DNA from: an uncultured Peptococcaceae bacterium
GTDB taxonomy: Bacteria > Bacillota > Dehalobacteriia > UBA7702
Reading direction: 5' to 3'
Length of the DNA: 64,000 nt
Assembly (NCBI GenBank): GCA_964637365.1
Contig: CAZWWH010000002.1
Coordinates: 11,528-75,527 of the forward strand
The notes below the pieces were generated by a model that did no database searches, was not told the origin of the DNA, and saw only the letters and a list, made by a program, of their open reading frames with translations. This document shows positions 6,256 through 56,559 of the stretch, in pieces. Position 1 is the first letter of the stretch. Each line of letters begins with the position of its first letter. The translations under genes were made by a program, and so were the position numbers.

Positions 6256-6279
6256 TTGAACGTCAAGTCCAATTTATTA

Positions 6280-6308
6280 TTGACAATTTCTCTCAGAACT
6301 GATAAAAT
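6280..6308 (+). promoter_or_regulatory. Sigma70-type promoter (TTGACA-17-TAAAAT) driving a cobalamin riboswitch
   Basis: Consensus -35 hexamer at 6280-6285, 17-nt spacer, -10 hexamer at 6303-6308. Confidence 0.5.
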
Positions 6309-6324
6309 TTTATTAAGTAAATAA

Positions 6325-6585
6325 TGACAAACCTGTGTAAAGTATTGGAATGAGGTGAAATCCCTCAGCGGACGGGCCACTGTGATTGCTTTTTAGCATA
6401 AGCCAGATCTTTGCTTTGCGATATGCTCCCTGTTTCGGCCAATGGACAGTTCCATTGAGGTGTCAGTGAATTTATCCGTGTCGGTGCAACAGGCTGGCAC
6501 GGTTTTATTTTGTACCGAAAAATCACACAAGGTGTTTGATAGAAAAGAATGATTTTCTTATCTGCACCTTGTGTTTTTTTATTCT
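6325..6585 (+). promoter_or_regulatory. Cobalamin (B12) riboswitch with intrinsic terminator
   Basis: Core GGAATGAGGTGAAATCCCTCAGCGGACGGGCCACTGTGA (6355-6395). Partial B12-box AAGCCAGATCTTTGC. Terminator hairpin CACAAGGTG...CACCTTGTG + T7 at 6527-6580. Confidence 0.7.
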
Positions 6586-6955
6586 ACGTATTTTCCAGAC
6601 TGCTTTGGAAATTTTATTGATATATTTTTCCATATTTCATTCATTTGGTTTCTTCCTGAGCACTCTCCAAATCTTACCTTGACCAAATAAGCTTCGATCT
6701 CTTTACCCTATGCTTTTCCCATATCTTATGATAAGCGCCATTGTCGTATTTTCTTGGAATATACGCAATACCTGCTCAGGATGAAATATGATAGGCGCAG
6801 CTTCCGTCCTTTCTGCGCTGCGCCCTCGGTGCTTCCCCGTGGCCAAAAGCCGCGGGGTATGCCCGGATAATTACAAAATGCTATTGTAATTGTACATTTT
6901 GAAATAAATAAGTTTTTGCCGGTAGAAATTAATGCCGGAAATGAAAGGAGATTTT

Positions 6956-8554
6956 ATGAAAAGAATGAAACGATTCATCGCACCCTTACTTGCTCTTGTC
7001 ATGGTAATATCTTTTGCCTTCGGTGTCACAGCCGCCGAAATCAATGCCGATGATGCCTCTAACAGCTATGTTTATCTAACAATGGAGAAATTTACTTTAG
7101 GGCAGGAATGTATTTTTGCACCTATTGCCATTCCCTGGGAGGAGGGAATGACTGCCGCATCCATTCTCGTCGATAAGCTTGGGGACGACAATTATCAATG
7201 CAGTGGCTCTTTAGACGGTGGTGACCTTTACATTTCAGCAGTAAAAGACCCCGATCAAGGTAGTGTTGATATGCCGAAGGTTATTTATGATGCAGTAATG
7301 GGCAGCCAAAATGTAATCTCTGCCCGTAATGAGAAGGAATGGCTCGGAGAGTTTGATTATTACAATGAAAGTGGCTGGATGTTGACGGTGAATGATGATT
7401 TTATTGGCACAAGCTCTGCTGCTCATACATTACAGCCCGGTGACGTTGTCCGTTGGCAATTTACCGTGTATGGCCTTGGTGCTGATTTGGGTAACAGTAA
7501 CGAATCTTTTGGTGGATATGATAAATTAATTGATGCTGCCAACAAAGATGACCTGGTAAAATCCTTGGCAAATGCTACACAAAAAGATACCAACGCATAT
7601 AAAAATGCCTATTCAGTGTTGGTCAATGCTGCGGCAACCCAGGCAGAGGTTGATACTGCAAAGGCCAATTTGGATGCCAATGCTGATGTTCCTTTGAATC
7701 TTTCTTCTTGTGAAAAACAGCACATTATTTTTACGAATGGGCTTCAGTTAAGTGCTACTGAACTTCAACTTGCACCTAAGGAAACTGAAAAATTAACCGC
7801 CGTGGTAACGCCTGACACGGCTAATTTCTCCGAGGTGGTCTGGAAATCTTCAAGAAAAGCTGTCGCCACTGTTTCGGCTGACGGCACTGTAACCGCAGTC
7901 GGTGAGGGGACGGCTAAAATTACCGCTACTACCAAAGATGGCGGAGCATCTGCTGTTTGTGAGGTTACAGTAAAAAAAGATGATGCCCCGGTAGAGATAA
8001 AACTCCCGTTCTCTGATGTTCAGAAAAAGGATTGGTTTTATACTGATGTTCTTTATGTTTACGAGAATGAAATCATGAATGGTGTCAGTAATACTGTGTT
8101 TGGTCCCAATGACGACTTGACCCGTGGTCAATTTGTTGCTATTTTAGGTCGTTATGCTGGGATTAAAGATAGCTCTAAAGGTTCGCCTGCTTCTAAAACC
8201 TTCGATGATGTGAAAACAACAGAGTACTATGCTTCTCATGTGAAGTGGGCCATAGATCAGGGGATTACTAATGGCGTAAGTGAAAAGAATTTTGCCCCTA
8301 AAGAAAAAATCACTAGAGAACAAATGGCTGCAATGATGTACCGCTACGCAAAGGCGATTGGTGTTACATTACCTGGGGCCGATAGCGACAAGTTTTCTGA
8401 TGACAATAAGATTTCCTCCTATGCTAAGGATGCAGTATATAGCATGAAAGCTGCAGGCATCTTAGGCGGTATGGGGAATAACACTTTTGCGCCTAAGGGT
8501 AATACCACTCGGGCCCAAGCAGCTAAAGTGATTCATGTGTTCATGGAACTGTAA
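6956..8554 (+). CDS. Surface protein: signal peptide + DUF4430 (transcobalamin-like beta domain) + Big_2 + 3x SLH domains
   Basis: Signal peptide MKRMKRFIAPLLALVMVISFAFGVTAA. DUF4430-type motif GEFDYYNESGWMLTVNDD...LQPGDVVRWQFTVYGLGADLG. Big_2 Ig-like segment (7720-7980). Three C-terminal SLH repeats (F.DV..W....I...G...G...F.P....TRAQ). RBS GAAAGGAG. Confidence 0.7.
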   Translation: MKRMKRFIAPLLALVMVISFAFGVTAAEINADDASNSYVYLTMEKFTLGQECIFAPIAIPWEEGMTAASILVDKLGDDNYQCSGSLDGGDLYISAVKDPDQGSVDMPKVIYDAVMGSQNVISARNEKEWLGEFDYYNESGWMLTVNDDFIGTSSAAHTLQPGDVVRWQFTVYGLGADLGNSNESFGGYDKLIDAANKDDLVKSLANATQKDTNAYKNAYSVLVNAAATQAEVDTAKANLDANADVPLNLSSCEKQHIIFTNGLQLSATELQLAPKETEKLTAVVTPDTANFSEVVWKSSRKAVATVSADGTVTAVGEGTAKITATTKDGGASAVCEVTVKKDDAPVEIKLPFSDVQKKDWFYTDVLYVYENEIMNGVSNTVFGPNDDLTRGQFVAILGRYAGIKDSSKGSPASKTFDDVKTTEYYASHVKWAIDQGITNGVSEKNFAPKEKITREQMAAMMYRYAKAIGVTLPGADSDKFSDDNKISSYAKDAVYSMKAAGILGGMGNNTFAPKGNTTRAQAAKVIHVFMEL

Positions 8555-8588
8555 AGTACTATATATAGGATAGGGAAGATAGATAAAG

Positions 8589-8623
8589 AAAACCGGAGTA
8601 TTCCTTTGAATACTCCGGTTTTA
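8589..8623. terminator. Bidirectional intrinsic terminator hairpin
   Basis: AAAACCGGAGTATTC-ctttg-GAATACTCCGGTTTTA: perfect stem flanked by an A-tract and a T-tract. Confidence 0.6.
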
Positions 8624-8821
8624 TATTGCCTTCAATTTAGCAACAAAAAAATCGCGGAACCATTCGGTTCCGCTGAAGGAAGGATAAAAGATAGAGATAA
8701 GAGTAGAAGATTCAGAATGAGATACGGATTATCATAAAAACTCATAGAGAGAGGAGTTTTAGAAAGGAGGGCAGCCGGCTGTACAATGACTGCCAAATTA
8801 AAAATAAGGAGATGATAGGTT

Positions 8822-9066
8822 TGGCAACTAAAAAAACTTTGTTCCCAAAGAGGAACAAAGCGCTTTTACAATGAAAAACACAAAACCTCTTACGCGGAAG
8901 TTCTTTGTAAATTCATAGGCTGAAATATCCTGACTTACCTTCTACGTTGATACCGCCTTCCCGCATGAACAGTGGCAAATGGTAACAACTCGGGTTTCAC
9001 AGTGGCGCGACCGTTGAGGATTTTCACCTCATTCCTTCTGCACCTATGATTTTTTGATTCAATTAC
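8822..9066 (-). promoter_or_regulatory. Cobalamin riboswitch (orphan; no downstream CDS) with intrinsic terminator
   Basis: Minus-strand core GGAATGAGGTGAAAATCCTCAACGGTCGCGCCACTGTGAAAC, GGGAAGGCGG, and AAGTCAGGATA B12-box-like segment. Terminator GCGCTTTGTTCC-tctttg-GGAACAAAG + T7 (plus 8822-8858). Confidence 0.6.
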
Positions 9067-9073
9067 TATAATT

Positions 9074-9102
9074 ATAATACATTAAAATCTACAAAAATTC
9101 AA
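9074..9102 (-). promoter_or_regulatory. Sigma70-type promoter (TTGAAT-17-TATTAT) for the orphan riboswitch
   Basis: Minus-strand -35 TTGAAT, 17-nt spacer, -10 TATTAT in an AT-rich region. Confidence 0.4.
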
Positions 9103-9231
9103 GTTAAGATATTATAACTATTCACTATAAAATTTTGCGTTTAAAGTTACTACATATTTAAGGGTAACCAGAGCAAAACTTATAATTATAAAATAAGGCT
9201 GTCCGGTTTTCCGAACAGCCTTACTACTCGA

Positions 9232-12102
9232 TTATGAGGGGACATCAGGATTTTTGTTAGGGCCACGCTTTTGTTTTTTATGGACAATCGTGGCGGTTAT
9301 GATAATGCCTGCTGCAAGTACAATGACTACAATAGAGCCAATGGCAATCCAACGGTGTTGCTCCCAGAATGATGTTAATTCTTCGGTAACACTATTATTA
9401 CCATGATCTGATTTGGTGTCATCGGTGTCTAACAGTGAACCTGCTTTGGCTCTTTTGGCAATAAAGTAATCACTACAATGCTCAATGATAAATTTCGTTG
9501 CTCCACCTTCGGCTGAAACTTTGTCAATAAATTCGGCCCTCATTTCTTCTGGTACGTAGTAAAAGAGGAGATATTTGCCGTCGGCTAATGATGTCTCCGG
9601 AATTTCAACCAAAGCTGGTCCTGGCATTTCACCTTCATGCATGAAGTGGATGATAAAAGGATCATCCGCTAGCTTACGGATGTTATCTTCGTTTTCACAA
9701 TCTTCTTTGCCAAAATAAATTTGCATATTAAAGTCCATGGGATTTTTGATGTCAGTGCCATTGAACGTAATGACGTAAGATTCCCCATTCTCAGTGGTAC
9801 CATCAAGCACCAAATTGATATTTTTTCCCTTAATTTCTTCAAATACTGATTTGGGTACTATGCCATTAGAAAAGTCGGCGCTGGTATACATGCGCCTTTT
9901 GCCGGAAACTTTCCTTTGAGAGAGAATATAGTCGCCTCCACGGTTTGCTTCGAACGTGGCTTGCATATTTTTGAGTGTTACTCCTACTTTTTCAAAGTCC
10001 TTTTTGGCTGCATTGTAGTAGTACATGGAGTATTTGCTTCCCGTTAAATCGACACTAATGGTGACGGTTGCCTTACCGGGGAATTCACCTTGGTGGGGGA
10101 AGTTCAGATAATAGGCGTCGGAAACAAAATCTCTAATTTCTTGTCCGTTGGCGGGAGTTGTCAGGATTCGGGCATCAAAATCCATGGGATTACTAATTTC
10201 TTTGCCTTTAAACGTGATGGTATATGCGTATTTATTATCGCACACACCTGTAATGGTATATTCCACATCTTTTCCGGAGATTAGTTCGAAAACCTCTTTG
10301 ATGACAATATTCTTTTTCAGGCCTTCGATAATTTTGCGGGCCAATAGTAAATCATCACTATGTTCCAGACTTTTTTGCTCTTTTTCTGAAAGCTTTAAAT
10401 AGCGCTGATAAAGAGCGTCTACCATGTTTTCATCGCTAAGTCTTATATTAATGGGATTGATAGATGCGGCAATATCTGCGTCCAATTTTTTTGCCGCATC
10501 GCTTATCGGATCGTCAGGATTATCCGAGGGATCGTTAATTTTGCTCAATTCTTTGATCTCGTCCAAAAGAATTTGCAGTTTACCGCGGTTGCTGATTTTT
10601 GACTTGTCGCTGCTGTTTAAGAGATTGTATTTTTGAGCGGTATCATAAATACTTTTAATATCTTCTTTCGTGGCGGTTTCCGGTAACTGCTCAATACTTT
10701 TGATGATGCTGTTAATTGTTTCTTCGGAACTGTTCGCTTCTTCTCTGAGATCGAAGAGGGGACGGAATCCATTGACAAAGCGGTAATATGCAACTAAGGC
10801 ATATCTTGCCTGGTCTGTTGCTATATGATTGCTTTCTCCAGCTGTTGCGTTGGAGCTGCCGTCTTTAGAGTAGGAATGAATAAAACCACCGTCTTTGCTG
10901 TTATAGTAGGCCAACAAGCCATCTAAAACAGTTTTTCCATTGTCAGTGATGAATCTTTGATCGCTAAGAGGATCGATCTGTAAGGAGCACAATGCCACCA
11001 GAACTTGAGCAGTGCTTTCTGCGTTGGGTACAGAAATGCTACCAAAGCCACCATCGTCTAGCTGCATTGCGGAAAGACGCGCCAATGCTTCGTCAACAAT
11101 GGTCTTGATCGTTTTCCCATTGGAATATACGGTAGTGGAGTCATAATAGGGAGCCAATGCCTGGAGTACCAAAGCAGTAATATCTGTATCACTGGAAGAA
11201 CTCGATAGAGCAAAACCGCCATCAGATAGTTGCTTAGATATCAAATATTCCAGAATCGCTTCTCTGGTTGTCGTAGCGTTTTCTGGAACCTCATATCGTT
11301 CGGAATCCAATGCGATTAAACCCCATGCCGCGCCATTAATACCTTGTTTCCACATGGGAGTCATGATACTCTGATAGATTCCGTCAGAAACTAAGTTTAC
11401 AGCGCTGCCATTTTTATCTTTCCCGAAGGATTTTGCATCTCTGCCCAAAGCGTTCAATGCCAAAATCGGACGGTGATAGTCGGTAGCTACGCGGTCACTC
11501 AGCCATCCTTTGGTTTGATAGGATTTGGTAACATAGGACTCAAGAGCCGTTAAGTAAGCTTCCGTGTCATCGGGATAACCAAATCTTGCAATGCCAAATG
11601 CCAGCCAATCGCAATCTGTGGTTCCGACACCAGCCAATGAACTTTCATTTAAGGCATAAAAGTTTTCCTGCTTTGACCAGTCAATCGTATTTTTAATGGC
11701 ATTTTCTAAATCATCGCTCAGATTGCGCACCGTACGTAGAGTGCCCGATAATTCCAATGATCCCTCTTCAACTGAACGATTATCGCCTTCCACAGTGGTG
11801 CTTTCAGATGATACGACACTGTGATCGATAATATTGTTGTAACCAGACAAAAATGTACGGAGCTGGAGTGATGTTACGCCTGCGCTATAAATATAGGCTT
11901 GGGAAGTACGTCCTGCCAGTTCGTCATAGCCCACATCCCAAATAAAATGTCCCCTTTGTGTCATGATTTGTTGCAGCGATTGGGCAGTAGTTGTGTCTTG
12001 GGTTTCTTCTTGATTGGATGATTCGTCATTTTTATCTCCACATCCCGTGAAAAAGAGACATAGCGCAAGACACAATACAACAATCAACGAGTGTTTTCTC
12101 AT
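9232..12102 (-). CDS. Large surface lipoprotein: alpha/alpha-toroid (prenyltransferase/terpene-cyclase-like) repeats + two tandem beta-domain repeats + C-terminal TM anchor
   Basis: Lipobox LFFTGCGD. Repeated Q/K.LsDGGF motifs (ISKQLSDGGFALS, AMQLDDGGFGS, YNSKDGGFIHS) typical of PF00432/SQHop-cyclase toroid repeats. Two ~140-aa internal repeats sharing ITF.G..I.NPMDF. C-terminal hydrophobic helix followed by KKQKRGP. RBS AGAGGGAG. Riboswitch directly upstream. Confidence 0.65.
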   Translation of the reverse strand: MRKHSLIVVLCLALCLFFTGCGDKNDESSNQEETQDTTTAQSLQQIMTQRGHFIWDVGYDELAGRTSQAYIYSAGVTSLQLRTFLSGYNNIIDHSVVSSESTTVEGDNRSVEEGSLELSGTLRTVRNLSDDLENAIKNTIDWSKQENFYALNESSLAGVGTTDCDWLAFGIARFGYPDDTEAYLTALESYVTKSYQTKGWLSDRVATDYHRPILALNALGRDAKSFGKDKNGSAVNLVSDGIYQSIMTPMWKQGINGAAWGLIALDSERYEVPENATTTREAILEYLISKQLSDGGFALSSSSSDTDITALVLQALAPYYDSTTVYSNGKTIKTIVDEALARLSAMQLDDGGFGSISVPNAESTAQVLVALCSLQIDPLSDQRFITDNGKTVLDGLLAYYNSKDGGFIHSYSKDGSSNATAGESNHIATDQARYALVAYYRFVNGFRPLFDLREEANSSEETINSIIKSIEQLPETATKEDIKSIYDTAQKYNLLNSSDKSKISNRGKLQILLDEIKELSKINDPSDNPDDPISDAAKKLDADIAASINPINIRLSDENMVDALYQRYLKLSEKEQKSLEHSDDLLLARKIIEGLKKNIVIKEVFELISGKDVEYTITGVCDNKYAYTITFKGKEISNPMDFDARILTTPANGQEIRDFVSDAYYLNFPHQGEFPGKATVTISVDLTGSKYSMYYYNAAKKDFEKVGVTLKNMQATFEANRGGDYILSQRKVSGKRRMYTSADFSNGIVPKSVFEEIKGKNINLVLDGTTENGESYVITFNGTDIKNPMDFNMQIYFGKEDCENEDNIRKLADDPFIIHFMHEGEMPGPALVEIPETSLADGKYLLFYYVPEEMRAEFIDKVSAEGGATKFIIEHCSDYFIAKRAKAGSLLDTDDTKSDHGNNSVTEELTSFWEQHRWIAIGSIVVIVLAAGIIITATIVHKKQKRGPNKNPDVPS

Positions 12103-12214
12103 TTTTTCTCCCTCTTTCAGTCTACCAACACTTGTTTGGCGCTGAATATGATCCTTTTGCGTAATTGTTTACGTGAGCGCTATAATTCTCGGCACGAATC
12201 ATGGAGCGCTTCCA

Positions 12215-12476
12215 TATAAATATAAAAGGGTATGGTAAAAAACCATACCCTTTCGCAATCGAATAGAATTCCAGTGATTCCAAATTTGAATACCTAAATT
12301 TTACAAATCTAGCAAATTCGAATCAAAGATACACCAGATTAACCTTTCTTCAGAAGGCATGGTAAGGTCAACCAAATGTTTTCTGGCTCATGCTAAAACG
12401 CAATCACAGTGGCCGGACCGCTGAGGAATCGCACCTCATTACCATTTTGATTACCTGTTACAATATCAAATTATCT
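12215..12476 (-). promoter_or_regulatory. Cobalamin riboswitch with intrinsic terminator (controls the 956-aa lipoprotein gene)
   Basis: Minus-strand core GGTAATGAGGTGCGATTCCTCAGCGGTCCGGCCACTGTGATTGCG. B12-box-like GAGCCAGAAAAC. Terminator AAGGGTATGGT-ttttt-ACCATACCCTT + TTTTAT (plus 12221-12260). Confidence 0.65.
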
Positions 12477-12482
12477 TAAAAT

Positions 12483-12511
12483 ATTATAATAATACTTGTA
12501 TAAAAAGTCAA
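12483..12511 (-). promoter_or_regulatory. Sigma70 promoter (TTGACT-17-TATAAT) for riboswitch c
   Basis: Near-consensus hexamers with a 17-nt spacer on the minus strand. Confidence 0.5.
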
Positions 12512-12604
12512 TACGAATGGGGGTATGGGTATTGGTCAGCGTTAAGAAAAGGAGGGATTTCCCTCCTTTTCTGTTCTATTAGAAGTATAATACATGGACC
12601 TTAA

Positions 12605-13351: not shown

Positions 13352-13889
13352 TTTCTGACTCCTCCTTTTATTTTTGCCGTTTCTTATAAAAAAACACAGT
13401 CCTTTCGGTATCTGTGCCAAATGGTCACAGGCACAGAGTAATCACATTTGACATAAAATCAAATGTTTGATATCACCTTGTGCCGATCAGTGACGTCCGT
13501 ATTTCTTTATGATTTAATTTTAACCATTCAGGTCAAAAATGTCAATGGCGAGTGATTGCTATCTCGTAGAAAATTAGCTTTGGGTGATAACAAATTGGAA
13601 TCACCCGCGCGTTGACAAAAAACGGAAATATGCTATTCTTGTCTCATTGAAAGGGACGAACGTATATATTTAAGGTGCCATTATTGTTTCATACTGTGAT
13701 AATGCCGATATCTCAGTATGAAATGGCGCCGAATGATATTTAATAAGGAGGGTCGAGGTAATTTATTGATTTCTTTTAATTGGCGCGCCGAGATTAAGGA
13801 AGTCGTTGCCACATGGATTTATGAGATGTGGCGAGTTTTGTGTTTAGCAGTAAAAGCACCGGCTATGATATTAAGAAAGGTATTATATT

Positions 13890-15158
13890 ATGAAATTAAA
13901 AAGAGTTTTTTGTTGCATTGTCATGATCGGGGCAATGCTGATTTTTGGTTCTTTGGCTGCAATGGCTGCCAACATGGAATCCCCCGTTGAAAAGTTCAAG
14001 GATATTGATACAAAAGCATGGTATATTGATGATGTGGAATATGTTTATGAAAACGGTATTATGAATGGGATGTCCGATACCATGTTTGGGCCAAATCTAG
14101 CGGTGACCCGAGGCCAGTTTGTGACTATGTTGGGACGTCTTGTAGAGATTGATGATTCCAGTTTGGAATCACCCCAAAATACTATTTTTAGTGATGTAAA
14201 ACCGACGTCTTATTATGCATCCCATATTGCGTGGGCTACCGAGTACGGTATTGTCAATGGTATGTCCAGTACAACCTTTGCTCCGGAACAAAAAGTAACC
14301 CGAGAACAAATGGCTACCATGATGGCACGTTTTTCCAAGGTATTCCAAATCTATATTCCTACCAAAGCAGATACCGCCTTTGCTGATGATGCTGCGATCA
14401 GTAAGTATGCGAAGGAAGCGGTATACGGCTTAAAAAATATCGGAATCCTTGATGGTGTTGGCAAAAATATTTTTGACCCCAAGGGGGCTACCACCCGTGC
14501 TGCCGCTGCCAAAGTGATGCACTATTATATGGAATATGAACCTGCTGATACCGCAGTCGTTTCTATTGAAAAATTCACATTGGGTCAGGGGTATATTTTA
14601 GAACCCACGGTTGTTCCTCTTAATAATGAAGCTACGGCTGATAGTGTTCTTCGTGCCGCGGCCAAGGAAGTTGGTATTGATTTGAAGTTCCATGAAAAAT
14701 CTGGTTATCTTACTTTTGTAAAAGATGAGTGCAATGCTCCTCTGAAGATACCTGATTTTATTGCTGATGAGATGGCAAAAGACGAAGTGACGGTTGATAA
14801 TCGTGCAGATGACGCATGGCTTGGTGAATATGATTATACTGCTCAAGCCGGTTGGCTGTATTGGCATAATAATGCCACGGCTTCTACTACTGCTAATCAG
14901 TGTGCCGTCAGCGATGGCGATGTGGTACGTTTCCAATTTTCCATTAGCGGATGGGGTGCTGACTTGGGACGCAGTGATGCTTGGACCGTTGCCTATCGTG
15001 AGTCTGCTAATAAGGATGAATTGATGAAAGCAGTTGCCTGGGCAAATGATACCCAAAGCGAAGCATACGCCAATGCACTGAAAGTGCTCACGAATATCGA
15101 AAGTAGTCAAGAAGCGGTTGACGCGGCCCTAGCTGCCATGCCCTTACTTGCAGATTAA
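13890..15158 (+). CDS. Surface protein: signal peptide + 3x SLH + C-terminal DUF4430 domain
   Basis: Signal peptide with AMAAN cleavage site. Three SLH repeats. DUF4430-type motif GEYDYTAQAGWLYWHNN...VSDGDVVRFQFSISGWGADLG. Paralogous to the C-terminal part of the DUF4430 region in the 6956 gene. Confidence 0.7.
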   Translation: MKLKRVFCCIVMIGAMLIFGSLAAMAANMESPVEKFKDIDTKAWYIDDVEYVYENGIMNGMSDTMFGPNLAVTRGQFVTMLGRLVEIDDSSLESPQNTIFSDVKPTSYYASHIAWATEYGIVNGMSSTTFAPEQKVTREQMATMMARFSKVFQIYIPTKADTAFADDAAISKYAKEAVYGLKNIGILDGVGKNIFDPKGATTRAAAAKVMHYYMEYEPADTAVVSIEKFTLGQGYILEPTVVPLNNEATADSVLRAAAKEVGIDLKFHEKSGYLTFVKDECNAPLKIPDFIADEMAKDEVTVDNRADDAWLGEYDYTAQAGWLYWHNNATASTTANQCAVSDGDVVRFQFSISGWGADLGRSDAWTVAYRESANKDELMKAVAWANDTQSEAYANALKVLTNIESSQEAVDAALAAMPLLAD

Positions 15159-15178
15159 GCAGGAAAGAGGGAATATCT

Positions 15179-15601
15179 ATGGCAAAAATTACTGATGAAG
15201 TTTTGAATGAAATCCGTGCCAGAGCCAAGGAACTGCAACGTGCTCCTATGAAAGCTGAGATGAAGCAAAAGAGATCATACTATGGCGGTTGGAATCATGC
15301 CGTAACCCTCGCTGGTTTATGTCCTTATGATGGTCATCGTCGGGATGAAATCCGTCCTCCTATGAATGGGAAAGAATACACCAATTCCGAGCTATTGTCT
15401 TTTGTGCGTCAGGCAGCAAAAAACAATATTGCTCCGCAAAAACGTGATGTGCCGGAATATCCCTTTATTGAATACCGCTTTGGTCCTTGGGCTAAATTGA
15501 TGAAAAAAATGGGTTATCGTTATTTAAGAGAAGAACAGTCTGATCCGCGTCCTTCCTGGGTGCATACGATTCAGCGGTCAAGAGATGAGAGATTGGCCTA
15601 G
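15179..15601 (+). CDS. Hypothetical cytoplasmic protein (140 aa), co-oriented with the SLH-DUF4430 gene
   Basis: ORF with RBS GAAAGAGGGA, 20 nt after the upstream stop. No recognisable family. Confidence 0.4.
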   Translation: MAKITDEVLNEIRARAKELQRAPMKAEMKQKRSYYGGWNHAVTLAGLCPYDGHRRDEIRPPMNGKEYTNSELLSFVRQAAKNNIAPQKRDVPEYPFIEYRFGPWAKLMKKMGYRYLREEQSDPRPSWVHTIQRSRDERLA

Positions 15602-15605
15602 GCTC

Positions 15606-15652
15606 TAAGCTTTATAAGAAACAGGAGATACCTTAAGGTATCTCCTGTTTTT
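15606..15652. terminator. Bidirectional intrinsic terminator
   Basis: AACAGGAGATACC-ttaa-GGTATCTCCTGTT + TTTT, between convergent genes. Confidence 0.65.
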
Positions 15653-15722
15653 GGGTTTGCATAGAAACTTTCTGCTTGGTCAAGGGCTTGCGGCAGAGAA
15701 AGCAGAAAGAAAAGAATTTTCA

Positions 15723-16910
15723 TTATGGATCCATCATACCGTATTTTTTTTTGACACGGTCTAACTTTTCTATCATTGGTTTTGAGAGAATCCAAAGAAA
15801 GAAAAAGGTGGCGACACCATGAACTGCATCAACGGGAATACCTGAAAGATATATGGCCAATGCCCCAGTTTTTTCCGTATTTGTTGTTAGAACTGTCCAT
15901 GTGTTTAATAGCAGCCCATAAATTACTTGTGCGCAGAAATAACCGAAAAAGCAAAGTGGAAGCCGTTTCTTAGAAAGCCAGCCTTTTTTGAATAACACCC
16001 CGGCCAAAAAGCCAATGATACCAAAGGCAAACATTTGCCACGGCGTCCAAGGGCCTTGACCAAAGAAAAAGTTCGAAACAAAAGCCGTCATCGCACCGCA
16101 GAGAAATCCCGCCTCAGCACCCAAACAAACACCGGAAATGGCAACAATTGCCCAAATTGGTTTTACATAGGGAAACATAAAGAAAGCTGCCCGTCCTAAG
16201 ATGGCGATTCCCACCATAACAGCGATGACTACCAGCTCTCTAGCTTCAGGCTTGCGCTGTTCAAAGATCATGAAGAAAGGGATCATCGTTTCAATGATAA
16301 TCATCAAACTGATAAAGTAGTATTGACGGTCATTCATAAAGAGGATGCCAAAAGCAATGGTAGCGGGGATAACCACTAGAATAAGGAGTGCAGCCATAGC
16401 CAAACGCTTCTTAACCCGGCGTATTAGAAGCACCATGAAAGCTACCAATAACGCTACGACCATAGCGATACACCCCTGTCCCATGACAAAGGTTGCTTTT
16501 GGATCTACCTGAGTTTTTATGACATGGGAAACATAAAAGTATGTGATAAAAACGAATACTACAGCTAAAATGGAACTGAAAAAGGTCCAGATGGTATTAT
16601 CACTATTTTTTGTAGCTTTGTTCTTGTTAAAAAGCATGGCCAGGCCAAAGGCCATGGTAATGGTGGTGGCCAATCCCATAATTCTAATGACTGAGATAAG
16701 GGATTTCGCTGTTTCCGGAATTGCTTTTGCAATATCGGATTTATAGAACTTAGTTATAAAATTATAGAGACTGAAGGTAATGGTCTGGTTATCCGCCGTT
16801 ACAGTAATAAAGGGCATTGCTACGCAGACCAGAGCCACGATCAAGGCTGTGCGGGCGATTTCCTTTATGGTATGATTTTCATTTATTTTGTCTGTAAGTT
16901 CTGCTTGCAT
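15723..16910 (-). CDS. ECF-transporter S-component-like polytopic membrane protein, paralog 2 (~11 TM)
   Basis: About 11 predicted TM helices. First 295 codons are nucleotide-identical to the upstream paralog. C-terminal ~100 aa diverge. Last gene of the riboswitch-controlled ECF operon. Confidence 0.55.
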   Translation of the reverse strand: MQAELTDKINENHTIKEIARTALIVALVCVAMPFITVTADNQTITFSLYNFITKFYKSDIAKAIPETAKSLISVIRIMGLATTITMAFGLAMLFNKNKATKNSDNTIWTFFSSILAVVFVFITYFYVSHVIKTQVDPKATFVMGQGCIAMVVALLVAFMVLLIRRVKKRLAMAALLILVVIPATIAFGILFMNDRQYYFISLMIIIETMIPFFMIFEQRKPEARELVVIAVMVGIAILGRAAFFMFPYVKPIWAIVAISGVCLGAEAGFLCGAMTAFVSNFFFGQGPWTPWQMFAFGIIGFLAGVLFKKGWLSKKRLPLCFFGYFCAQVIYGLLLNTWTVLTTNTEKTGALAIYLSGIPVDAVHGVATFFFLWILSKPMIEKLDRVKKKYGMMDP

Positions 16911-16930
16911 AATTCCACGACATCCTCATT
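16027..16930 (-). repeat. Copy B of a ~0.9 kb 100%-identical tandem direct repeat (gene-conversion tract)
   Basis: Identical to 17255-18158, including 20 nt upstream of the start codon. Confidence 0.8.
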
Positions 16931-16944
16931 TATATATTAAAATA

Positions 16945-18138
16945 TTATGATTCCATCATACCGTATTTCTTTTTGATGCGATCTAATTTTTCTATCATTG
17001 GTTTTGAGAGAACCCATAGAAAAAAGAAGGTGGAAATTCCGTAAACCATGTTGACGGGAAAGCCTGAAATATAATAGGCTAAGGGACCTGTGGTGCTAGT
17101 ATCAAAAGCTAAAGTGAAAATTGTACAGGTATCCATAATGAGCCCATAGACAATTAATGCACTAAAAAAGCCAAAGATGCAAAGTGGAAGCCGCTTCTTA
17201 GAAAGCCAGCCTTTTTTAAAGAATATGCCTGCCAAGAAGCCAATAAGCCCTAATGCAAACATTTGCCACGGCGTCCAAGGGCCTTGACCAAAGAAAAAGT
17301 TCGAAACAAAAGCCGTCATCGCACCGCAGAGAAATCCCGCCTCAGCACCCAAACAAACACCGGAAATGGCAACAATTGCCCAAATTGGTTTTACATAGGG
17401 AAACATAAAGAAAGCTGCCCGTCCTAAGATGGCGATTCCCACCATAACAGCGATGACTACCAGCTCTCTAGCTTCAGGCTTGCGCTGTTCAAAGATCATG
17501 AAGAAAGGGATCATCGTTTCAATGATAATCATCAAACTGATAAAGTAGTATTGACGGTCATTCATAAAGAGGATGCCAAAAGCAATGGTAGCGGGGATAA
17601 CCACTAGAATAAGGAGTGCAGCCATAGCCAAACGCTTCTTAACCCGGCGTATTAGAAGCACCATGAAAGCTACCAATAACGCTACGACCATAGCGATACA
17701 CCCCTGTCCCATGACAAAGGTTGCTTTTGGATCTACCTGAGTTTTTATGACATGGGAAACATAAAAGTATGTGATAAAAACGAATACTACAGCTAAAATG
17801 GAACTGAAAAAGGTCCAGATGGTATTATCACTATTTTTTGTAGCTTTGTTCTTGTTAAAAAGCATGGCCAGGCCAAAGGCCATGGTAATGGTGGTGGCCA
17901 ATCCCATAATTCTAATGACTGAGATAAGGGATTTCGCTGTTTCCGGAATTGCTTTTGCAATATCGGATTTATAGAACTTAGTTATAAAATTATAGAGACT
18001 GAAGGTAATGGTCTGGTTATCCGCCGTTACAGTAATAAAGGGCATTGCTACGCAGACCAGAGCCACGATCAAGGCTGTGCGGGCGATTTCCTTTATGGTA
18101 TGATTTTCATTTATTTTGTCTGTAAATTCTGCTTGCAT
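16945..18138 (-). CDS. ECF-transporter S-component-like polytopic membrane protein, paralog 1 (~11 TM)
   Basis: Same architecture as paralog 2. Start overlaps the ecfA 3' end by 28 nt, implying translational coupling. The C-terminal half (ARELVVIAVMVGIAILGRAAF..., GQGPWTPWQ) resembles ECF S-components. Confidence 0.55.
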   Translation of the reverse strand: MQAEFTDKINENHTIKEIARTALIVALVCVAMPFITVTADNQTITFSLYNFITKFYKSDIAKAIPETAKSLISVIRIMGLATTITMAFGLAMLFNKNKATKNSDNTIWTFFSSILAVVFVFITYFYVSHVIKTQVDPKATFVMGQGCIAMVVALLVAFMVLLIRRVKKRLAMAALLILVVIPATIAFGILFMNDRQYYFISLMIIIETMIPFFMIFEQRKPEARELVVIAVMVGIAILGRAAFFMFPYVKPIWAIVAISGVCLGAEAGFLCGAMTAFVSNFFFGQGPWTPWQMFALGLIGFLAGIFFKKGWLSKKRLPLCIFGFFSALIVYGLIMDTCTIFTLAFDTSTTGPLAYYISGFPVNMVYGISTFFFLWVLSKPMIEKLDRIKKKYGMMES

Positions 18139-18158
18139 AATTCCACGACATCCTCATT
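17255..18158 (-). repeat. Copy A of the ~0.9 kb 100%-identical tandem direct repeat
   Basis: Identical to 16027-16930. Its upstream 20 nt lie inside the ecfA coding 3' end. Confidence 0.8.
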
Positions 18159-19790
18159 ATTAACTGCATTGGTAAACACATGCCTCGATAGCCGGTTGGC
18201 AGATGTTGTATAAAAGCTATTGCCGGAGAAAAATCGGTTTGGCGTATCGGTGGTAACAATATCGCCATCAAAAAACATAGAGCAGCTGTCACCATAGCGG
18301 GCACAAAACTCAATGTCATGGGATACCATCACTACAGTGACTCCTTGATTGATAAGCTTTTTCAGAATCTCTGCAAGTTTGATTTTAAAGTAATTATCTA
18401 AGCCTTTGGTAGGTTCATCCAGTAATAGAATTTTGGGTTCCAGAAGGAGGATTTTTGCCAAAGCCGCCCTTTGTTGTTCCCCGCCGCTGATATCATATGG
18501 ATGCATTTGCAATAAATCAGTAATTTCCACCAACTCTGCGACGCGGCGAATTTGTTCTGCTTGTTCTTCCTTGGGAATTTTTTTATCTCTCATCATTTCC
18601 CAAAGATCCAGTTCCACTGTTTTTTTCACAAAAAGCGATTGAGGATCCTGAGGAAGCACAGCCAGGTTGCCTACAAATAATTCCTTGTTGGAATATTTTT
18701 TAATTTCTTTCCCATTGATAAGGACTTTTCCTCGATATGGACGCAAAATGCCGCTCATAATTTTCAAAGTAGTGCTTTTGCCTGTGCCATTGCCGCCAAC
18801 AATGCAAAACAAACTAGCCTTAGGAATATCAACGGAAACACCTTTGACGATATCCTTACCTTCCTTTTCGTAGCGGAACCAAACTTCCTTTAAGCGAATC
18901 ACAGGGTCGCTTTTCTTTAATTCTTGATGGTGGTCAATATTTCGATATTTGATTTCCTGATTCTGAAATAGCTCAGAAATCCAGTTGCGTCCCTCTCTTA
19001 CTGTCAATGGACATTCCAGCAGATTGTCAACAGCCGCATAAATCTGCATAGGGGAGGGCATGGCTACAAACATATCATTATCTTCTTGTTTCAATTTGGT
19101 GCCGACATTTCTTGGCGTGTCGTCCGCAATGACTTTGCCTTTTTCCATCACCACAACTCGGTCAGCATAAGGAACGACGTCTTCCAAACGGTGTTCAATG
19201 ATGATGACTGTAGTGCCCACTTCCTGGTTAATTTTCCGAATAGTTGCAAGAAAATCTGCGGCGGCGATGGGATCCAACTGGGAGGTTGGTTCATCTAGTA
19301 GAAGAACGGACGGCTGCATTGCCATAATGGATGCAAGATTCAGTAGTTGCTTCTGACCACCGGAGAGCTCTGTTACATTTTTCATGAACCATGTTTGGAT
19401 TCCAAAATAGCTTGCCATTTCTGCTACTCTCAGACGAATGGTGTGGTTGTCAGCCCCTAAGCTCTCCAATCCAAAAGCTAATTCATGCCAAACTTTATCG
19501 GTGACTATTTGGTTGTCAGGGTTTTGTAAAACAAAACCGATTTGGGAGGATTGTGCGCGAAAGCTAACATCCTCCAGAGATTTACCATAAAACAAAATTT
19601 CCCCGCTTCTAGTGCCGTGGGGGGCCATCACTGTTTTTAGCTGGCGCATCAGGGTACTTTTGCCGCACCCTGATTTTCCGCAAAGTGCAATAAATTCACC
19701 TTGCTCTACTTTTAAATTGACGTGGTCTAACGCTTTTTTTTCTTGTTCTGGATATGAAAACGTCAGATCTTTGATTTCATAACATGCCAT
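18111..19790 (-). CDS. ECF transporter fused duplicated ATPase (EcfA-EcfA')
   Basis: Two ABC ATPase domains: Walker A GKSGCGKST and GGNGTGKST, signatures LSGGQKQ and ISGGEQQR. RBS GGAGG. Confidence 0.8.
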   Translation of the reverse strand: MACYEIKDLTFSYPEQEKKALDHVNLKVEQGEFIALCGKSGCGKSTLMRQLKTVMAPHGTRSGEILFYGKSLEDVSFRAQSSQIGFVLQNPDNQIVTDKVWHELAFGLESLGADNHTIRLRVAEMASYFGIQTWFMKNVTELSGGQKQLLNLASIMAMQPSVLLLDEPTSQLDPIAAADFLATIRKINQEVGTTVIIIEHRLEDVVPYADRVVVMEKGKVIADDTPRNVGTKLKQEDNDMFVAMPSPMQIYAAVDNLLECPLTVREGRNWISELFQNQEIKYRNIDHHQELKKSDPVIRLKEVWFRYEKEGKDIVKGVSVDIPKASLFCIVGGNGTGKSTTLKIMSGILRPYRGKVLINGKEIKKYSNKELFVGNLAVLPQDPQSLFVKKTVELDLWEMMRDKKIPKEEQAEQIRRVAELVEITDLLQMHPYDISGGEQQRAALAKILLLEPKILLLDEPTKGLDNYFKIKLAEILKKLINQGVTVVMVSHDIEFCARYGDSCSMFFDGDIVTTDTPNRFFSGNSFYTTSANRLSRHVFTNAVNNEDVVELCKQNLQTK

Positions 19791-20653
19791 TTAACATCCT
19801 CCATTATATCAATCACCATGGGGAAAAAACATAGAAAACCGTAGGCAATGTAAACAAATATCGCCAGCGGAGTTGTTTCATTCATGATGAACAATGGGCT
19901 GTACGAGATAAAAATCTTGCCTATTGCCACCATAATAAAGGCGAATAGTGTCGGAATTATAATAGAGGCAATCACAATGTAATCTCTGGTATCGAAACGG
20001 AAAATAGAAAAGCTGGTGCGCCCCGGAAGTCCATAACCTCGGGAACGCATGGAATCCGCTGTTTCAATTCCATTTTCCAATGCCCATGTTGTCATAATTG
20101 ATATGATTTTCATACCGTTTTTGGCCTTTTCAACGAGATTTCCTTCAGTCGCATCCCGACCCATACATTTTTGCCCATTAGAAATTACTTTGATTTGTGC
20201 TTTGAATTTCGGAACAAAACGCAGCACCATGGATAGTACCAAAGAAATTGCGGGAATGACCCGGCCAAAAAGGTAGATAAATTTATCTGATGTCATCACT
20301 GCGTTATAGCAGGAAAACCACATGATAACTGTAACAAACATTGTGGCGGAGGCGAGCCCGTAAATCAATGATTCCAAAGTTAACGGATTACCGCTGGGAA
20401 AATAAGTGAGAATCGTAGCGCCCTGATGATTGAAAAGAGGATTCATGACGGCTGCGAGAATTAAAAGCGGAAGCATTGCGCAGAGATTAAACAGCAGCGC
20501 CTTTTTTCCATTTAGATAAATAGAATAGGTTATAGCAGCCACGAAGGATATTGCGAGAAAAACTGGCTGCATCATAAACATGGTAAATAAAATGACAATA
20601 AGAAAAAATGAAAAATTTATAATTGGATGAAGCGTAGAAAAAGCGTCTTTCAT
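19763..20653 (-). CDS. ECF transporter transmembrane (T) component, CbiQ/EcfT family
   Basis: Polytopic membrane protein with the EcfT signature region ...ADSMRSRGYGLPGRT... RBS GGAGG 8 nt upstream of ATG (MKDAFST...). Overlaps the ecfA start. Confidence 0.7.
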   Translation of the reverse strand: MKDAFSTLHPIINFSFFLIVILFTMFMMQPVFLAISFVAAITYSIYLNGKKALLFNLCAMLPLLILAAVMNPLFNHQGATILTYFPSGNPLTLESLIYGLASATMFVTVIMWFSCYNAVMTSDKFIYLFGRVIPAISLVLSMVLRFVPKFKAQIKVISNGQKCMGRDATEGNLVEKAKNGMKIISIMTTWALENGIETADSMRSRGYGLPGRTSFSIFRFDTRDYIVIASIIIPTLFAFIMVAIGKIFISYSPLFIMNETTPLAIFVYIAYGFLCFFPMVIDIMEDVKWHVMKSKI

Positions 20654-20699
20654 TGGGAAACCTCCAAACAGAATCCTTCCGCAACAAAAAACGCTTGCA

Positions 20700-20882
20700 A
20701 TAAAAAAATCCTGCACCGAGCGCAGGACAATAGGGTACCACTGAAACCTCAGTCACGGAAGGCTTGGTAAATACAGCAAACAAAGTTTTCTGGCTTCCGA
20801 GTTTATGGCTCGTATCACAGTGGCCGGACCGCCGGGGAGTCTAACCCCGTTACCTTATGTCATTGCATTTCGATATTTGCTT
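20700..20882 (-). promoter_or_regulatory. Cobalamin riboswitch with intrinsic terminator controlling the ECF operon
   Basis: Minus-strand core GGTAACGGGGTTAGACTCCCCGGCGGTCCGGCCACTGTGATACG. B12-box-like GAAGCCAGAAAAC. Terminator CCTGCGCTCGGTGCAGG + T7 immediately upstream of the ecfT RBS. Confidence 0.6.
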
Positions 20883-20889
20883 TTTAATA

Positions 20890-20918
20890 ATCATAACAAA
20901 TTTTTTCGCTTTGCACAA
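20890..20918 (-). promoter_or_regulatory. Putative sigma70 promoter with extended -10 (TTGTGC-17-TGtTATGAT)
   Basis: Minus-strand hexamers with 17-nt spacer and a TG extended -10 element. Confidence 0.35.
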
Positions 20919-22623: not shown

Positions 22624-22681
22624 TATTGAATCAAGTAATCGTTGTAATAGGGTTGATTATTTTTTCCAAAAGTAAATAATC

Positions 22682-56507: not shown

Positions 56508-56559
56508 TTTAGACCTTTACAAAATAAAGAATTGTGCTATAATATTAAAAAATGAAAAA

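Follow-up and report, generated by a model that had tools for sequence, protein, structure and literature searches.

A rearranged cobalamin-riboswitch-associated gene cluster with a probable role in corrinoid scavenging in a spore-forming Bacillota bacterium

The locus described here is a rearranged copy of a B12-scavenging gene cluster known from other Gram-positive species, and in its host, a spore-forming Bacillota bacterium, it probably serves the scavenging and import of corrinoids, the vitamin B12 family. As a cluster the system is already known; the locus is a variant of it, for which sequence comparison and structure models predict a corrinoid role. A B12-linked uptake system, as put forward in a preliminary description of this DNA, is supported by homology of the S components to CbrT, the fold of the beta proteins, gene linkage in 80 related loci and the riboswitches. 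This copy stands out by its scrambled layout, by a riboswitch that has no gene (the orphan) and by two S genes that form a tandem mosaic pair.

Gene content and conservation of the cluster

The locus comprises three DUF4430 proteins (two SLH-anchored, one a lipoprotein), a toroid lipoprotein, an ECF module and two S components, distributed over six transcription units on both strands. Within the window (the whole stretch of 64,000 nucleotides that was analysed), the genes are as follows.

6956–8554 (alternative start 6932), forward strand: SLH-beta1, cell-wall anchored, with signal peptide, divergent DUF4430 domain, helical linker, Big_2 and three SLH domains
9232–12102, reverse strand: alpha, 956-aa toroid lipoprotein, lipobox FTGC
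12605–13351, reverse strand: lipo-beta, 248-aa lipoprotein, lipobox LTAC, low-complexity acidic linker, C-terminal DUF4430 domain
13890–15158, forward strand: SLH-beta2, with signal peptide followed by three SLH domains and a divergent DUF4430 domain
15179–15601, forward strand (same direction as SLH-beta2): HNH_repeat protein, 140 aa, no signal peptide
15723–16910, reverse strand: S2, 395-aa membrane protein, ~210-aa N-terminal extension and CbrT-like S domain
16945–18138, reverse strand: S1, 397 aa, matching PDB 6fnp_A (CbrT), E 6e-8
18111–19790, reverse strand: fused EcfA–EcfA' ATPase, 559 aa, TIGR04520 384.6 bits (cut-off 315), two ABC_tran domains
19763–20653, reverse strand: EcfT transmembrane component, matching EcfT of PDB 5d3m/6fnp, E 1.4e-10

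The preliminary description assigned every flanking gene to capture or transport; the genes it listed are as described, and the HNH_repeat protein had been overlooked. It also called the apparatus undescribed, which is wrong because the same five-gene set, together with the alpha/beta assignment, has been published for L. sakei lsa1836–1840 (10.1101/864751); moreover, the cluster is present in at least 561 species genomes. In a sample of 80 loci, each from a different species, 79 have a DUF4430 gene no more than 10 kb from the toroid gene; EcfT occurs in 70, AA' in 67 and an S gene in 56. The genes mostly form a single operon, and the canonical order in relatives is R-alpha-beta-(alpha-beta)-T-AA'-S. 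Rfam places a riboswitch upstream in 6/7 loci and our own covariance model in 40 of the 66 with usable upstream sequence, and among loci missed by the latter Rfam recovers a riboswitch in 4/8. In many Bacillota, linkage of toroid, DUF4430 and ECF-CbrT genes downstream of B12 riboswitches is near-obligate. Alpha–beta gene overlaps of 20–32 nt are seen in loci L088 and L089, natural DUF4430–toroid fusions occur (P0081; 2 of 60 homologues), and SLH-DUF4430 homologues lie directly 3' of riboswitches in L085, L087 and L089. The closest relative (L084, 69% identical) keeps a beta-beta-alpha module with neither a riboswitch nor adjacent ECF genes.

Riboswitches and the orphan transcript

Cobalamin-clan Rfam matches were found at exactly four sites in the scanned interval (positions 5500–22000), in line with the four riboswitch-like elements within 15 kb first reported. 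Their coordinates, with those of associated signals, are listed below.

6280–6308, forward strand: promoter-like site of the SLH-beta1 unit (TTGACA-17-TAAAAT, with TG; 11/12 matches)
6319–6452, forward strand: short cobalamin-riboswitch-like aptamer without P6 extension, SLH-beta1 leader (RF01482, 39.2 bits, E 2.9e-4, sub-threshold)
6476–6502, forward strand: terminator-like hairpin, likely expression platform of the 6319 element
8589–8622, both directions: 15-bp palindromic hairpin, SLH-beta1 terminator and final terminator met by the convergent orphan transcript
8640–8835, reverse strand: CU-rich non-coding tail of the orphan riboswitch, containing CCCUCCUUUCUAA, own terminator at 8673–8654
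8836–8861, reverse strand: terminator-like hairpin that forms the orphan riboswitch's expression platform
8901–9062, reverse strand: full-length cobalamin riboswitch with P6 extension, orphan (RF00174, 71.2 bits, E 1e-15)
9102–9074, reverse strand: promoter-like site of the orphan riboswitch
12224–12254, reverse strand: terminator-like hairpin in the alpha-gene leader
12356–12486, reverse strand: short cobalamin riboswitch, alpha-gene leader (RF00174, 35.0 bits, above gathering score)
12511–12483, reverse strand: promoter-like site of the alpha-gene riboswitch
12545–12572, both directions: palindromic terminator 3' of the lipo-beta gene
13352–13545, reverse strand: lipo-beta promoter (13545–13517) and leader
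20708–20728, reverse strand: terminator-like hairpin that forms the expression platform for the ECF-operon riboswitch
20763–20894, reverse strand: short cobalamin-riboswitch-like aptamer in the T-AA'-S1-S2 operon leader (RF00174, 27.0 bits, E 1.6e-3, sub-threshold)

Two elements pass the Rfam gathering score (31.5 for RF00174, 50 for RF01482) and two fall just short; three match RF00174, the model originally proposed for all four, one of them below threshold, and the 6319 element matched RF01482 instead. Alignment shows an invariant core (GGTG...CC) and B12 box (GCCACTG...AGYCAG) common to all four, each is followed 20–130 nt downstream by an intrinsic-terminator-like hairpin, and three have a strong promoter-like site immediately upstream. 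A purpose-built covariance model detected no fifth riboswitch in the window; because these four elements had been used to seed the model, only the lack of a fifth match is informative.

Riboswitch control, initially ascribed to the whole locus, holds for three of the six units (SLH-beta1, alpha and the ECF operon); lipo-beta and SLH-beta2, two of the three DUF4430 genes, have no detectable riboswitch, and the fourth riboswitch lacks a gene. The lipo-beta leader, read by eye, contains attenuator-like alternative hairpins (three GGCAC/GTGCC copies and CACAG...CTGTG followed by a T run), which are kept in L084.

The gene-less element is the best-scoring of the four. No credible ORF was found in its tail, nor any coding remnant by blastx, and the fold z over the whole 491 nt is −6.0. 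The tail is a candidate riboswitch-gated small RNA. EutX of Enterococcus and Rli55 of Listeria are riboswitch-gated small RNAs, and the orphan unit resembles them in combining a full-length cobalamin riboswitch, its own promoter and terminator, a short non-coding tail and a second terminator; unlike them, it is associated with no ANTAR-type hairpins or eut genes that we could see.

Alternatively, the orphan and the two sub-threshold elements could be nonfunctional remnants of a rearranged single-leader operon, with regulation now mostly constitutive. The scrambled window invites this explanation, since relatives such as L089 carry one co-directional operon with a single leader, as do the orphan's want of a gene, the two scores under the gathering threshold, a leader comparison in which the alpha-gene aptamer is missing from the homologous leader of L084, and the ~430 nt between the 6476–6502 hairpin and the SLH-beta1 start codon, a non-coding stretch in which no ORF or coding remnant was found. 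Nevertheless, we consider such decay unlikely: the orphan is the best preserved of the set (71 bits), with promoter-like site and terminator kept, the invariant core and downstream terminator persist in all four, and the 6319 element and the alpha-gene aptamer share 88% identity across 59 nt, a sign of recent duplication and not of decay.

Capture proteins

The proposal that DUF4430 is transcobalamin beta-like agrees with Pfam on the ORFs and with the structure model. The lipo-beta domain, which has four conserved cysteines, scores 61.6 bits in Pfam, and its AF2 model (pLDDT 93) predicts the beta fold of transcobalamin, intrinsic factor and haptocorrin: the top 17 Foldseek matches in the PDB are all beta domains of these carriers (E 4e-7 to 7e-6); a bacterial DUF4430 structure comes next, and the match after it has E 1.6e-2. 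Among the matches is PDB 5np4, "Beta domain of human transcobalamin bound to cyanocobalamin", in which the isolated domain binds corrinoid unaided. HMMER profiles of the beta family did not reach transcobalamin in the PDB, and the homology thus rests on Pfam membership and fold. SLH-beta1 passes the DUF4430 profile (27.8 bits, cut-off 23.8; Big_2 1e-15, SLH 1e-38), SLH-beta2 falls below the same cut-off (21.6 bits; SLH 4e-35), and both, like lipo-beta, were aligned with DUF4430 homologues.

The likeness of the alpha protein to the transcobalamin alpha domain is looser than first supposed. Its model (pLDDT 89) does contain an alpha6/alpha6 toroid (~aa 120–455). After it come a helical region, a pair of repeated domains of ~130 aa each and, at the C terminus, a TM helix, such that the protein is anchored both by lipid and by this helix. 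By sequence and structure, however, the toroid is closer to terpene cyclases/prenyltransferases, and alpha has no sequence match to Pfam Cobalamin_bind. We infer that alpha and beta would nonetheless sandwich a corrinoid between them. It is also conceivable, if improbable, that ECF-CbrT imports B12 while only DUF4430 binds corrinoid, the toroid, from the terpene-cyclase/prenyltransferase or glycosidase-like superfamily, serving as a non-binding enzyme or scaffold. It might then work on the envelope, or else remodel bound cobamides or set them free. Such a role sits poorly with the adjacency of alpha and beta in nearly all sampled loci, their gene overlaps in relatives and their occasional fusion. 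In addition, alpha as a lipoprotein lies outside the cell and so away from isoprenoid diphosphates, and it carries D-T-D-I-T-A where squalene-hopene cyclases have the motif DxDDTA.

In eukaryotic transcobalamin, intrinsic factor and haptocorrin the two domains form a single protein, whereas here they reside on separate membrane- or wall-anchored proteins, and the rare bacterial fusions run beta-alpha rather than alpha-beta. Under the corrinoid-sandwich reading, low intracellular cobalamin would let the riboswitches read through, so that the cell produces the transporter and the toroid protein along with one of the two SLH-anchored DUF4430 proteins, while the remaining two DUF4430 proteins would be made from promoters without a riboswitch. 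DUF4430 proteins in the S-layer/wall zone and at the membrane would capture free corrinoids; near the membrane, the lipo-beta and toroid pair would close around or hold the corrinoid and hand it to a CbrT-like S component, with import powered by EcfT–AA' through ATP. Imported B12, converted to the sensed form, would then turn the switches off.

Transporter, substrate and comparison with known systems

The predicted ECF-type transporter of T, fused AA' and two S components was borne out, the S domains being homologous to CbrT. Residues 222–395 of S1 align to 6fnp_A, and no other S component was matched. For EcfT, the ATG at 20653 is the probable start, since a longer ORF would run into the leader terminator. 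Over ~900 nt, including the ribosome-binding site, S1 and S2 are near-identical, with one amino-acid difference at residue 5; their final ~300 nt (aa 296 to end) share roughly 50–85% identity per 60-nt block, and the divergence is confined to helices 4–6. The pair may represent two corrinoid specificities sharing one ECF module.

The ECF module of Lactobacillus delbrueckii is a shared one, whereas the locus encodes a dedicated module beside its S genes, with fused ATPases and tandem S paralogues that each carry the N-terminal membrane extension. Otherwise the transporter resembles L. delbrueckii ECF-CbrT (PDB 6FNP; PMC5997447) in its homologous S domain, matching T subunit and ECF-type ATPases. 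By analogy, its expected substrates are those of ECF-CbrT, which carries cobalamin and cobinamide and for which hemin is no competitor (PMC5997447). The alpha and beta proteins add extracytoplasmic partners; accessory proteins are absent from the discussion in that paper.

Compared by gene set, L. sakei Lsa1836–1840 (Verplaetse et al., 10.1101/864751) is alike in having S, fused AA', T and secreted beta-like and alpha-like (toroid) proteins, the latter two placed by HHpred with the transcobalamin beta and alpha domains, and the idea of an extracellular alpha/beta binder feeding an ECF transporter is common to that paper and ours. The present locus differs in carrying four cobalamin riboswitches, two S genes and three beta paralogues, two of them with SLH anchors; its alpha is far larger, and its genes are spread over six transcription units that use both strands. 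Unlike the corrinoid reading here, the L. sakei system was published as a heme importer: in the sole experiment on such a cluster, a heme-uptake defect rather than a B12 phenotype was reported, deletion of the five genes impairing hemin uptake (heme sensor, 57Fe ICP-MS) and complementation restoring it, and in docking, heme came to lie at the interface of the modelled alpha/beta pair (10.1101/864751). That the present pair likewise captures heme, or that the importer takes up other tetrapyrroles in place of corrinoids, is very improbable given the cobalamin riboswitches ahead of this and most homologous loci, the homology to CbrT, whose cobalamin transport hemin did not compete (PMC5997447), a beta fold whose top matches are B12 carriers, and a window in which no heme-related genes were found. 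The neighbours of the locus (an MttB-family methyltransferase, a BCCT transporter and a DUF3786 cluster) point to corrinoid-dependent metabolism and hence to B12 demand.

A 2026 review describes extracellular capture in Gram-positive Firmicutes as "entirely uncharacterized" (PMC13616437). In outline, the locus is reminiscent of Bacteroides BtuG/BtuH/BtuJ/BtuK (PMC6143338; PMC13616437), with several lipid- or wall-anchored surface binders and a riboswitch-controlled B12 transporter, although no relationship between the folds is known and the Bacteroides relay feeds an outer-membrane TonB transporter, not an ECF importer. Lastly, a homologue of the HNH_repeat protein adjoins an SLH-DUF4430 gene in both L084 and L085.

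Proteins of the locus and their folds

The core functional reading of the locus, that its products serve B12-linked uptake, draws on independent lines, namely a CbrT-like S component, a transcobalamin beta-type fold and linkage to cobalamin riboswitches, which together give this part of the preliminary description good support as a prediction from sequence. The proteins concerned are the following.

Protein-coding genes of the capture locus
6956–8554, +, SLH-beta1: signal peptide, divergent DUF4430 (27.8 bits; cut-off, 23.8), followed by Big_2 and three SLH domains
9232–12102, −, alpha: 956-aa toroid lipoprotein with a C-terminal TM helix
12605–13351, −, lipo-beta: lipoprotein with DUF4430 (PF14478; 61.6 bits against a cut-off of 23.8)
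13890–15158, +, SLH-beta2: three SLH domains, then a divergent DUF4430 (21.6 bits, just under the cut-off of 23.8)
15723–16910, −, S2: S component
16945–18138, −, S1: S component
18111–19790, −, fused EcfAA': TIGR04520, 384.6 bits against a cut-off of 315
19763–20653, −, EcfT: PDB 5d3m_D, E 1.4e-10

The proposal that DUF4430 is a transcobalamin beta-type domain was borne out by both a Pfam match and a fold match. Specifically, when the DUF4430 domain of lipo-beta was modelled with AF2 (pLDDT 93) and the model compared with the PDB using Foldseek, each of the top 17 matches (E 4e-7 to 7e-6) was a beta domain from transcobalamin, intrinsic factor or haptocorrin, followed by a Ruminococcus gnavus structural-genomics DUF4430 protein and then by a gap to E 1.6e-2; the TM score against the isolated human beta domain is 0.75. 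The matches include PDB 5np4, which holds the isolated human beta domain with cyanocobalamin, and a stand-alone beta domain can therefore bind B12, as the human one does. A phmmer search of the PDB with lipo-beta returned no match, and none of the profiles A1, A3 and A5, built for this analysis, reaches transcobalamin, intrinsic factor or haptocorrin there; the predicted link between the beta proteins and transcobalamin is one of Pfam membership and fold only. The protein database contains no close orthologue of SLH-beta1, the best match being 43% identical, and the divergent SLH-beta subfamily is rare (32 matches) and variably anchored, by SLH, Flg_new, fn3 or dockerin domains. Members of this subfamily lie directly behind cobalamin riboswitches in two related loci from other genomes, L085 and L087.

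Adjoining SLH-beta2, and missing from the preliminary description, is a gene for a small cytoplasmic HNH_repeat protein (PF18780; 140 aa, 15179–15601, +). Such a gene sits next to an SLH-DUF4430 gene in three genomes, those of the window, of its relative L084 (6815–7255) and of L085 (7509–7841), in the last of which it has a cobalamin riboswitch on one side and the DUF4430 gene on the other. The protein may be a regulator. As a general partner of the system it was rejected on evidence too thin: phmmer found only the L084 protein and a weak match in another related locus (L031), to which Pfam adds L085.

Residues 71–470 of alpha give a confident alpha/alpha toroid model (pLDDT 89), and among 60 alpha homologues 33 have some match to Pfam Prenyltrans, 16 to SQHop_cyclase_C and none to Cobalamin_bind (PF01122), so membership of the last family was rejected. 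From the model and these counts, alpha is predicted to share the fold class of the transcobalamin alpha domain yet to lie outside its sequence family. One of the main rival explanations holds that alpha does not bind the ligand at all and has an enzymatic or scaffold role. The only PDB match found by phmmer is a terpene cyclase, at a nonsignificant E of 0.6, and the Prenyltrans score of alpha itself is 17.3 bits against a cut-off of 26.5, at which an identity as a class II terpene cyclase or prenyltransferase was rejected. The catalytic motif of class II terpene cyclases is DxDD; the corresponding stretch of alpha, an exported lipoprotein, reads DTDITA and is missing the third Asp, and a DxDD enzyme was likewise rejected. 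Alpha exceeds the usual length of its family (620–650 aa) by ~330 aa, and its region from residue ~470 to 956 (9232–10690, −) contains two repeated domains of ~130 aa that match nothing in Pfam and that recur in a few homologues: P0002, P0004 and the alpha proteins encoded in the loci L088 and L089.

In transcobalamin, intrinsic factor and haptocorrin the alpha and beta domains are carried on one chain, whereas in the window they are encoded by separate genes. Natural beta–alpha fusions occur in 2 of 60 alpha homologues, and the domain order also differs: alpha precedes beta in transcobalamin, but the rare bacterial fusion P0081 has beta before alpha. No locus protein matches families of the BtuG, BtuH or BtuJ type in the Pfam and NCBIfam annotation, and the resemblance to Bacteroides BtuG/BtuH is functional only.

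EcfT, two ECF-type ATPase domains and the S components are encoded together in the window. Both S proteins exceed the Pfam ECF_trnsprt cut-off of 30.7 bits (38.5 and 34.8), and the S domain (aa 222–395) aligns with residues 8–179 of CbrT from L. delbrueckii (PDB 6fnp_A; E 6.2e-8), the sole PDB S component that it matches. Moreover, the structure matched by EcfT is the T subunit of the CbrT-type complexes in the PDB. Over ~900 nt, a stretch that takes in the ribosome-binding site, the two S genes are near-identical and the encoded residues differ only at position 5; their final ~300 nt (from aa 296 onwards, helices 4–6) retain roughly 50–85% identity per 60-nt block. In S components, the half made up of helices 4–6 shapes the substrate pocket and helices 1–3 touch EcfT. 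Tandem S genes were seen in none of the 80 other sampled loci, and the pair looks like the product of a recent partial duplication or gene conversion, judging from the pattern of identity. The same DNA is found in three public assemblies, in each of which the metagenome contig stops within or next to the S-gene repeat.

Cobalamin riboswitch-like elements and transcription units

Four cobalamin riboswitch-like elements had been claimed, and an Rfam scan of the interval returned exactly four matches to the cobalamin clan (CL00101); two of these reach the gathering threshold and two fall below it.

Cobalamin riboswitch elements
6319–6452, +: RF01482, 39.2 bits against a threshold of 50, below (E 2.9e-4)
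8901–9062, −: RF00174, 71.2 bits against a threshold of 31.5, above
12356–12486, −: RF00174, 35.0 bits against a threshold of 31.5, above
20763–20894, −: RF00174, 27.0 bits against a threshold of 31.5, below (E 1.6e-3)

In an alignment (A2) of the four elements with eight Rfam-confirmed riboswitches of other loci, the GGTG...CC hairpin and the B12 box, GCCACTG...AGYCAG, are invariant in all four window elements. The aptamer at 8901–9062 is full length; the other three are without ~70 alignment columns that correspond to the P6 extension, an architecture that we take to be of the class-II type. All four are followed by a terminator-like hairpin (6476–6502, 8861–8836, 12254–12224 and 20728–20708), three are preceded by a promoter-like site (9–11 of 12 positions matching in the promoter scan), and three have a B12-related gene downstream, the exception being 8901–9062, which has no downstream ORF. 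Our own covariance model, whose seed included the four elements, recovers these and detects no fifth in the window, and given that seed it is the lack of a fifth that carries information; neither Rfam nor this model detected one in the divergent region 13420–13890. Another main rival, that the regulatory elements are partly decayed, is favoured by the two subthreshold scores and opposed by the invariance of the hairpin and B12 box.

Comparison with L084, a 69%-identical relative that has no riboswitch at all and no adjoining ECF genes, bears on the history of the short aptamers. The L084 alpha leader (9765–10000) keeps the flanking leader sequence but is without the ~110-nt aptamer (12356–12486); from this alignment of homologous leaders, the aptamer seems to have been acquired or lost as one module. 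The aptamer of the alpha gene is also 88% identical to that of SLH-beta1 (6319) across 59 nt, and the short aptamers of the window suggest duplication, or module-wise gain and loss.

A promoter and terminator scan combined with direct reading of the sequence divides the locus into six transcription units.

Transcription units
Unit 1, +: promoter, riboswitch, terminator, 430 nt of non-coding sequence, SLH-beta1
Unit 2, −: promoter, full-length riboswitch, terminator, 196-nt CU-rich tail, two terminators; no gene
Unit 3, −: promoter, riboswitch, terminator, alpha
Unit 4, −: promoter, leader with alternative hairpins, lipo-beta; no riboswitch
Unit 5, +: promoter, SLH-beta2, HNH_repeat gene; no riboswitch
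Unit 6, −: riboswitch, terminator, T-AA'-S1-S2

SLH-beta1, alpha and T-AA'-S1-S2 are thus placed behind riboswitches, but the units of lipo-beta and of SLH-beta2 with the HNH_repeat gene are without one, and the claim that all genes of the locus are riboswitch-controlled is therefore only partly true. The lipo-beta leader (13352–13545, −) contains three GGCAC/GTGCC segments able to pair as alternative hairpins, which are conserved in L084 (8840–8990), and a terminator made up of CACAG...CTGTG and a T run. It matches no Rfam family and no recognized aptamer, and from its predicted pairing it may be an uncharacterized attenuator. In unit 1, the ~430 nt that separate the riboswitch terminator from the SLH-beta1 start codon (6503–6931, +) are unusually long for a riboswitch leader; this gap has no ORF and no Rfam match, and blastx and blastn against all sampled loci found no coding remnant in 6490–6960.

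The gene-less unit (8640–9102, −), in which a promoter-like site, the full-length riboswitch and a terminator are followed by the 196-nt CU-rich tail and two further terminators, carries the highest-scoring riboswitch of the window. Its terminators face the 3' end of SLH-beta1, the two units being convergent. The tail contains CCCUCCUUUCUAA, which we take to resemble the 3' end of 16S rRNA, and has no credible ORF; blastx and blastn against all sampled loci likewise found no coding remnant in 8560–8900. When the tail RNA was paired with 49 translation-start regions, the best duplex (−53.8 kcal/mol) was not better than those of shuffled tails (minimum −52.7). This riboswitch, SLH-beta1 and any other riboswitch are all missing from L084, the nearest relative. 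The unit may be a relic or a riboswitch-gated small RNA, the latter in the manner of EutX or Rli55.

Distribution of the cluster and the question of its substrate

The preliminary description presented the system as undescribed. This did not hold: the split alpha/beta idea has already been published, and the cluster is not rare. The toroid family has hundreds of members, and at least 561 species carry it in a scan that took a single genome from each; from these, 80 loci were sampled. A DUF4430 gene lies within 10 kb of the toroid gene in 79 of the 80, and EcfT, EcfAA' and a CbrT-like S component were found in 70, 67 and 56, respectively, many loci being truncated. The canonical layout is one co-directional operon in the order riboswitch, alpha, beta, (alpha, beta), T, AA', S. 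Rfam detects a same-strand cobalamin riboswitch upstream in six of seven loci tested; of the 66 loci with upstream sequence, 40 have one in the 1.5 kb ahead of the cluster according to our covariance model, and Rfam recovers a riboswitch in four of eight loci that this model missed. Collectively, the linkage, operon and riboswitch counts place the alpha, beta and ECF-CbrT genes in the core of the Bacillota B12 regulon, and the window is a scrambled derivative of the canonical operon.

Individual loci add detail. In L088 and L089, the alpha gene (941–957 aa) overlaps the lipo-beta gene by 20–32 nt, an arrangement consistent with coupled expression. In L089 the canonical operon follows one riboswitch, and a second riboswitch there precedes a 2227-aa protein with DUF4430, Cadherin-like and SLH domains. 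In L085 (9360–10230) and a further locus, L086 (1421–2351), a riboswitch-controlled SLH-DUF4430 gene is followed by a MotA_ExbB-family gene, DUF2149 and giant surface proteins (1140–2790 aa); this stretch, in which no ECF genes were seen, is a different B12-linked surface module.

The remaining main rival, heme import, comes from the published L. sakei cluster lsa1836–1840, for which heme was proposed as the substrate and a deletion phenotype with complementation was reported (10.1101/864751). All five of its gene types (S, AA', T, exported beta-like and exported alpha-like) are also clustered in the window, and the set is seen in 56–79 of the 80 sampled loci, a likeness by gene types. ECF-CbrT, on the other side, transports cobalamin and cobinamide, for which hemin is no competitor (PMC5997447). 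We found no paper that joins this cluster to B12 riboswitches or assays its cobamide binding. The present analysis argues that heme, the one function so far published for a cluster of this type, is an incomplete assignment or does not apply generally, and points to the DUF4430, toroid and ECF-CbrT operon as a widespread candidate for extracellular cobamide capture in Gram-positive bacteria.

A proposed route of cobamide capture and its surroundings

Under the cobamide reading, low B12 would allow the leaders to be read through, with production of SLH-beta1, alpha and the transporter as the result. Corrinoids would be bound at two levels, in the wall layer and at the membrane, by DUF4430 proteins; the lipo-beta and alpha pair would hold or enclose the ligand and pass the corrinoid to a CbrT-like S component, and EcfT-AA' would import it. 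A more ambitious joint reading, which we consider unlikely as a whole, combines a multilayer extracellular cobamide relay with gating of a small RNA and an origin of the animal carriers in split binders. In it, DUF4430 "antennae" of the wall may feed a membrane split-transcobalamin alpha/beta pair and one ECF motor, and the two mosaic CbrT-like S components may have different cobamide specificities. The stand-alone full-length riboswitch may control a small non-coding RNA through which B12 status is signalled in trans, and the animal B12 carriers may descend from prokaryotic split alpha/beta binders.

Extracellular cobamide capture in Gram-positive bacteria is an acknowledged gap, described for the Firmicutes in a 2026 review as "entirely uncharacterized" (PMC13616437). 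If binding is confirmed, the system would be a Gram-positive counterpart of the Bacteroides BtuG/H/J relay, and would supply bacterial transcobalamin-beta relatives for evolutionary and structural study as well as new B12-binding modules for biotechnology. The window itself offers testable oddities in its gene-less riboswitch, the presence or absence of aptamers among close relatives and the tandem mosaic S pair.

Beside the ECF operon lies a cluster at 21097–28436 (+), which encodes a sigma-54 activator, an MFS transporter and a DUF3786 protein together with the following.

Methyltransferase and transporter genes of the adjacent cluster
22984–24399, +: MttB-superfamily methyltransferase
25946–27532, +: BCCT transporter

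This cluster suggests corrinoid-dependent demethylation of quaternary amines, and therefore a need for B12 next door to the uptake genes. Two further RNAs were encountered. An FMN riboswitch (56556–56669, +; 108 bits), an ordinary feature, is directly upstream of the ORF 56681–57886, in what is probably a riboflavin operon. In L084, an OLE RNA (20026–20625, −; 426 bits) adjoins a polyprenyl synthetase gene and lies ~400 nt from a DXP synthase gene.
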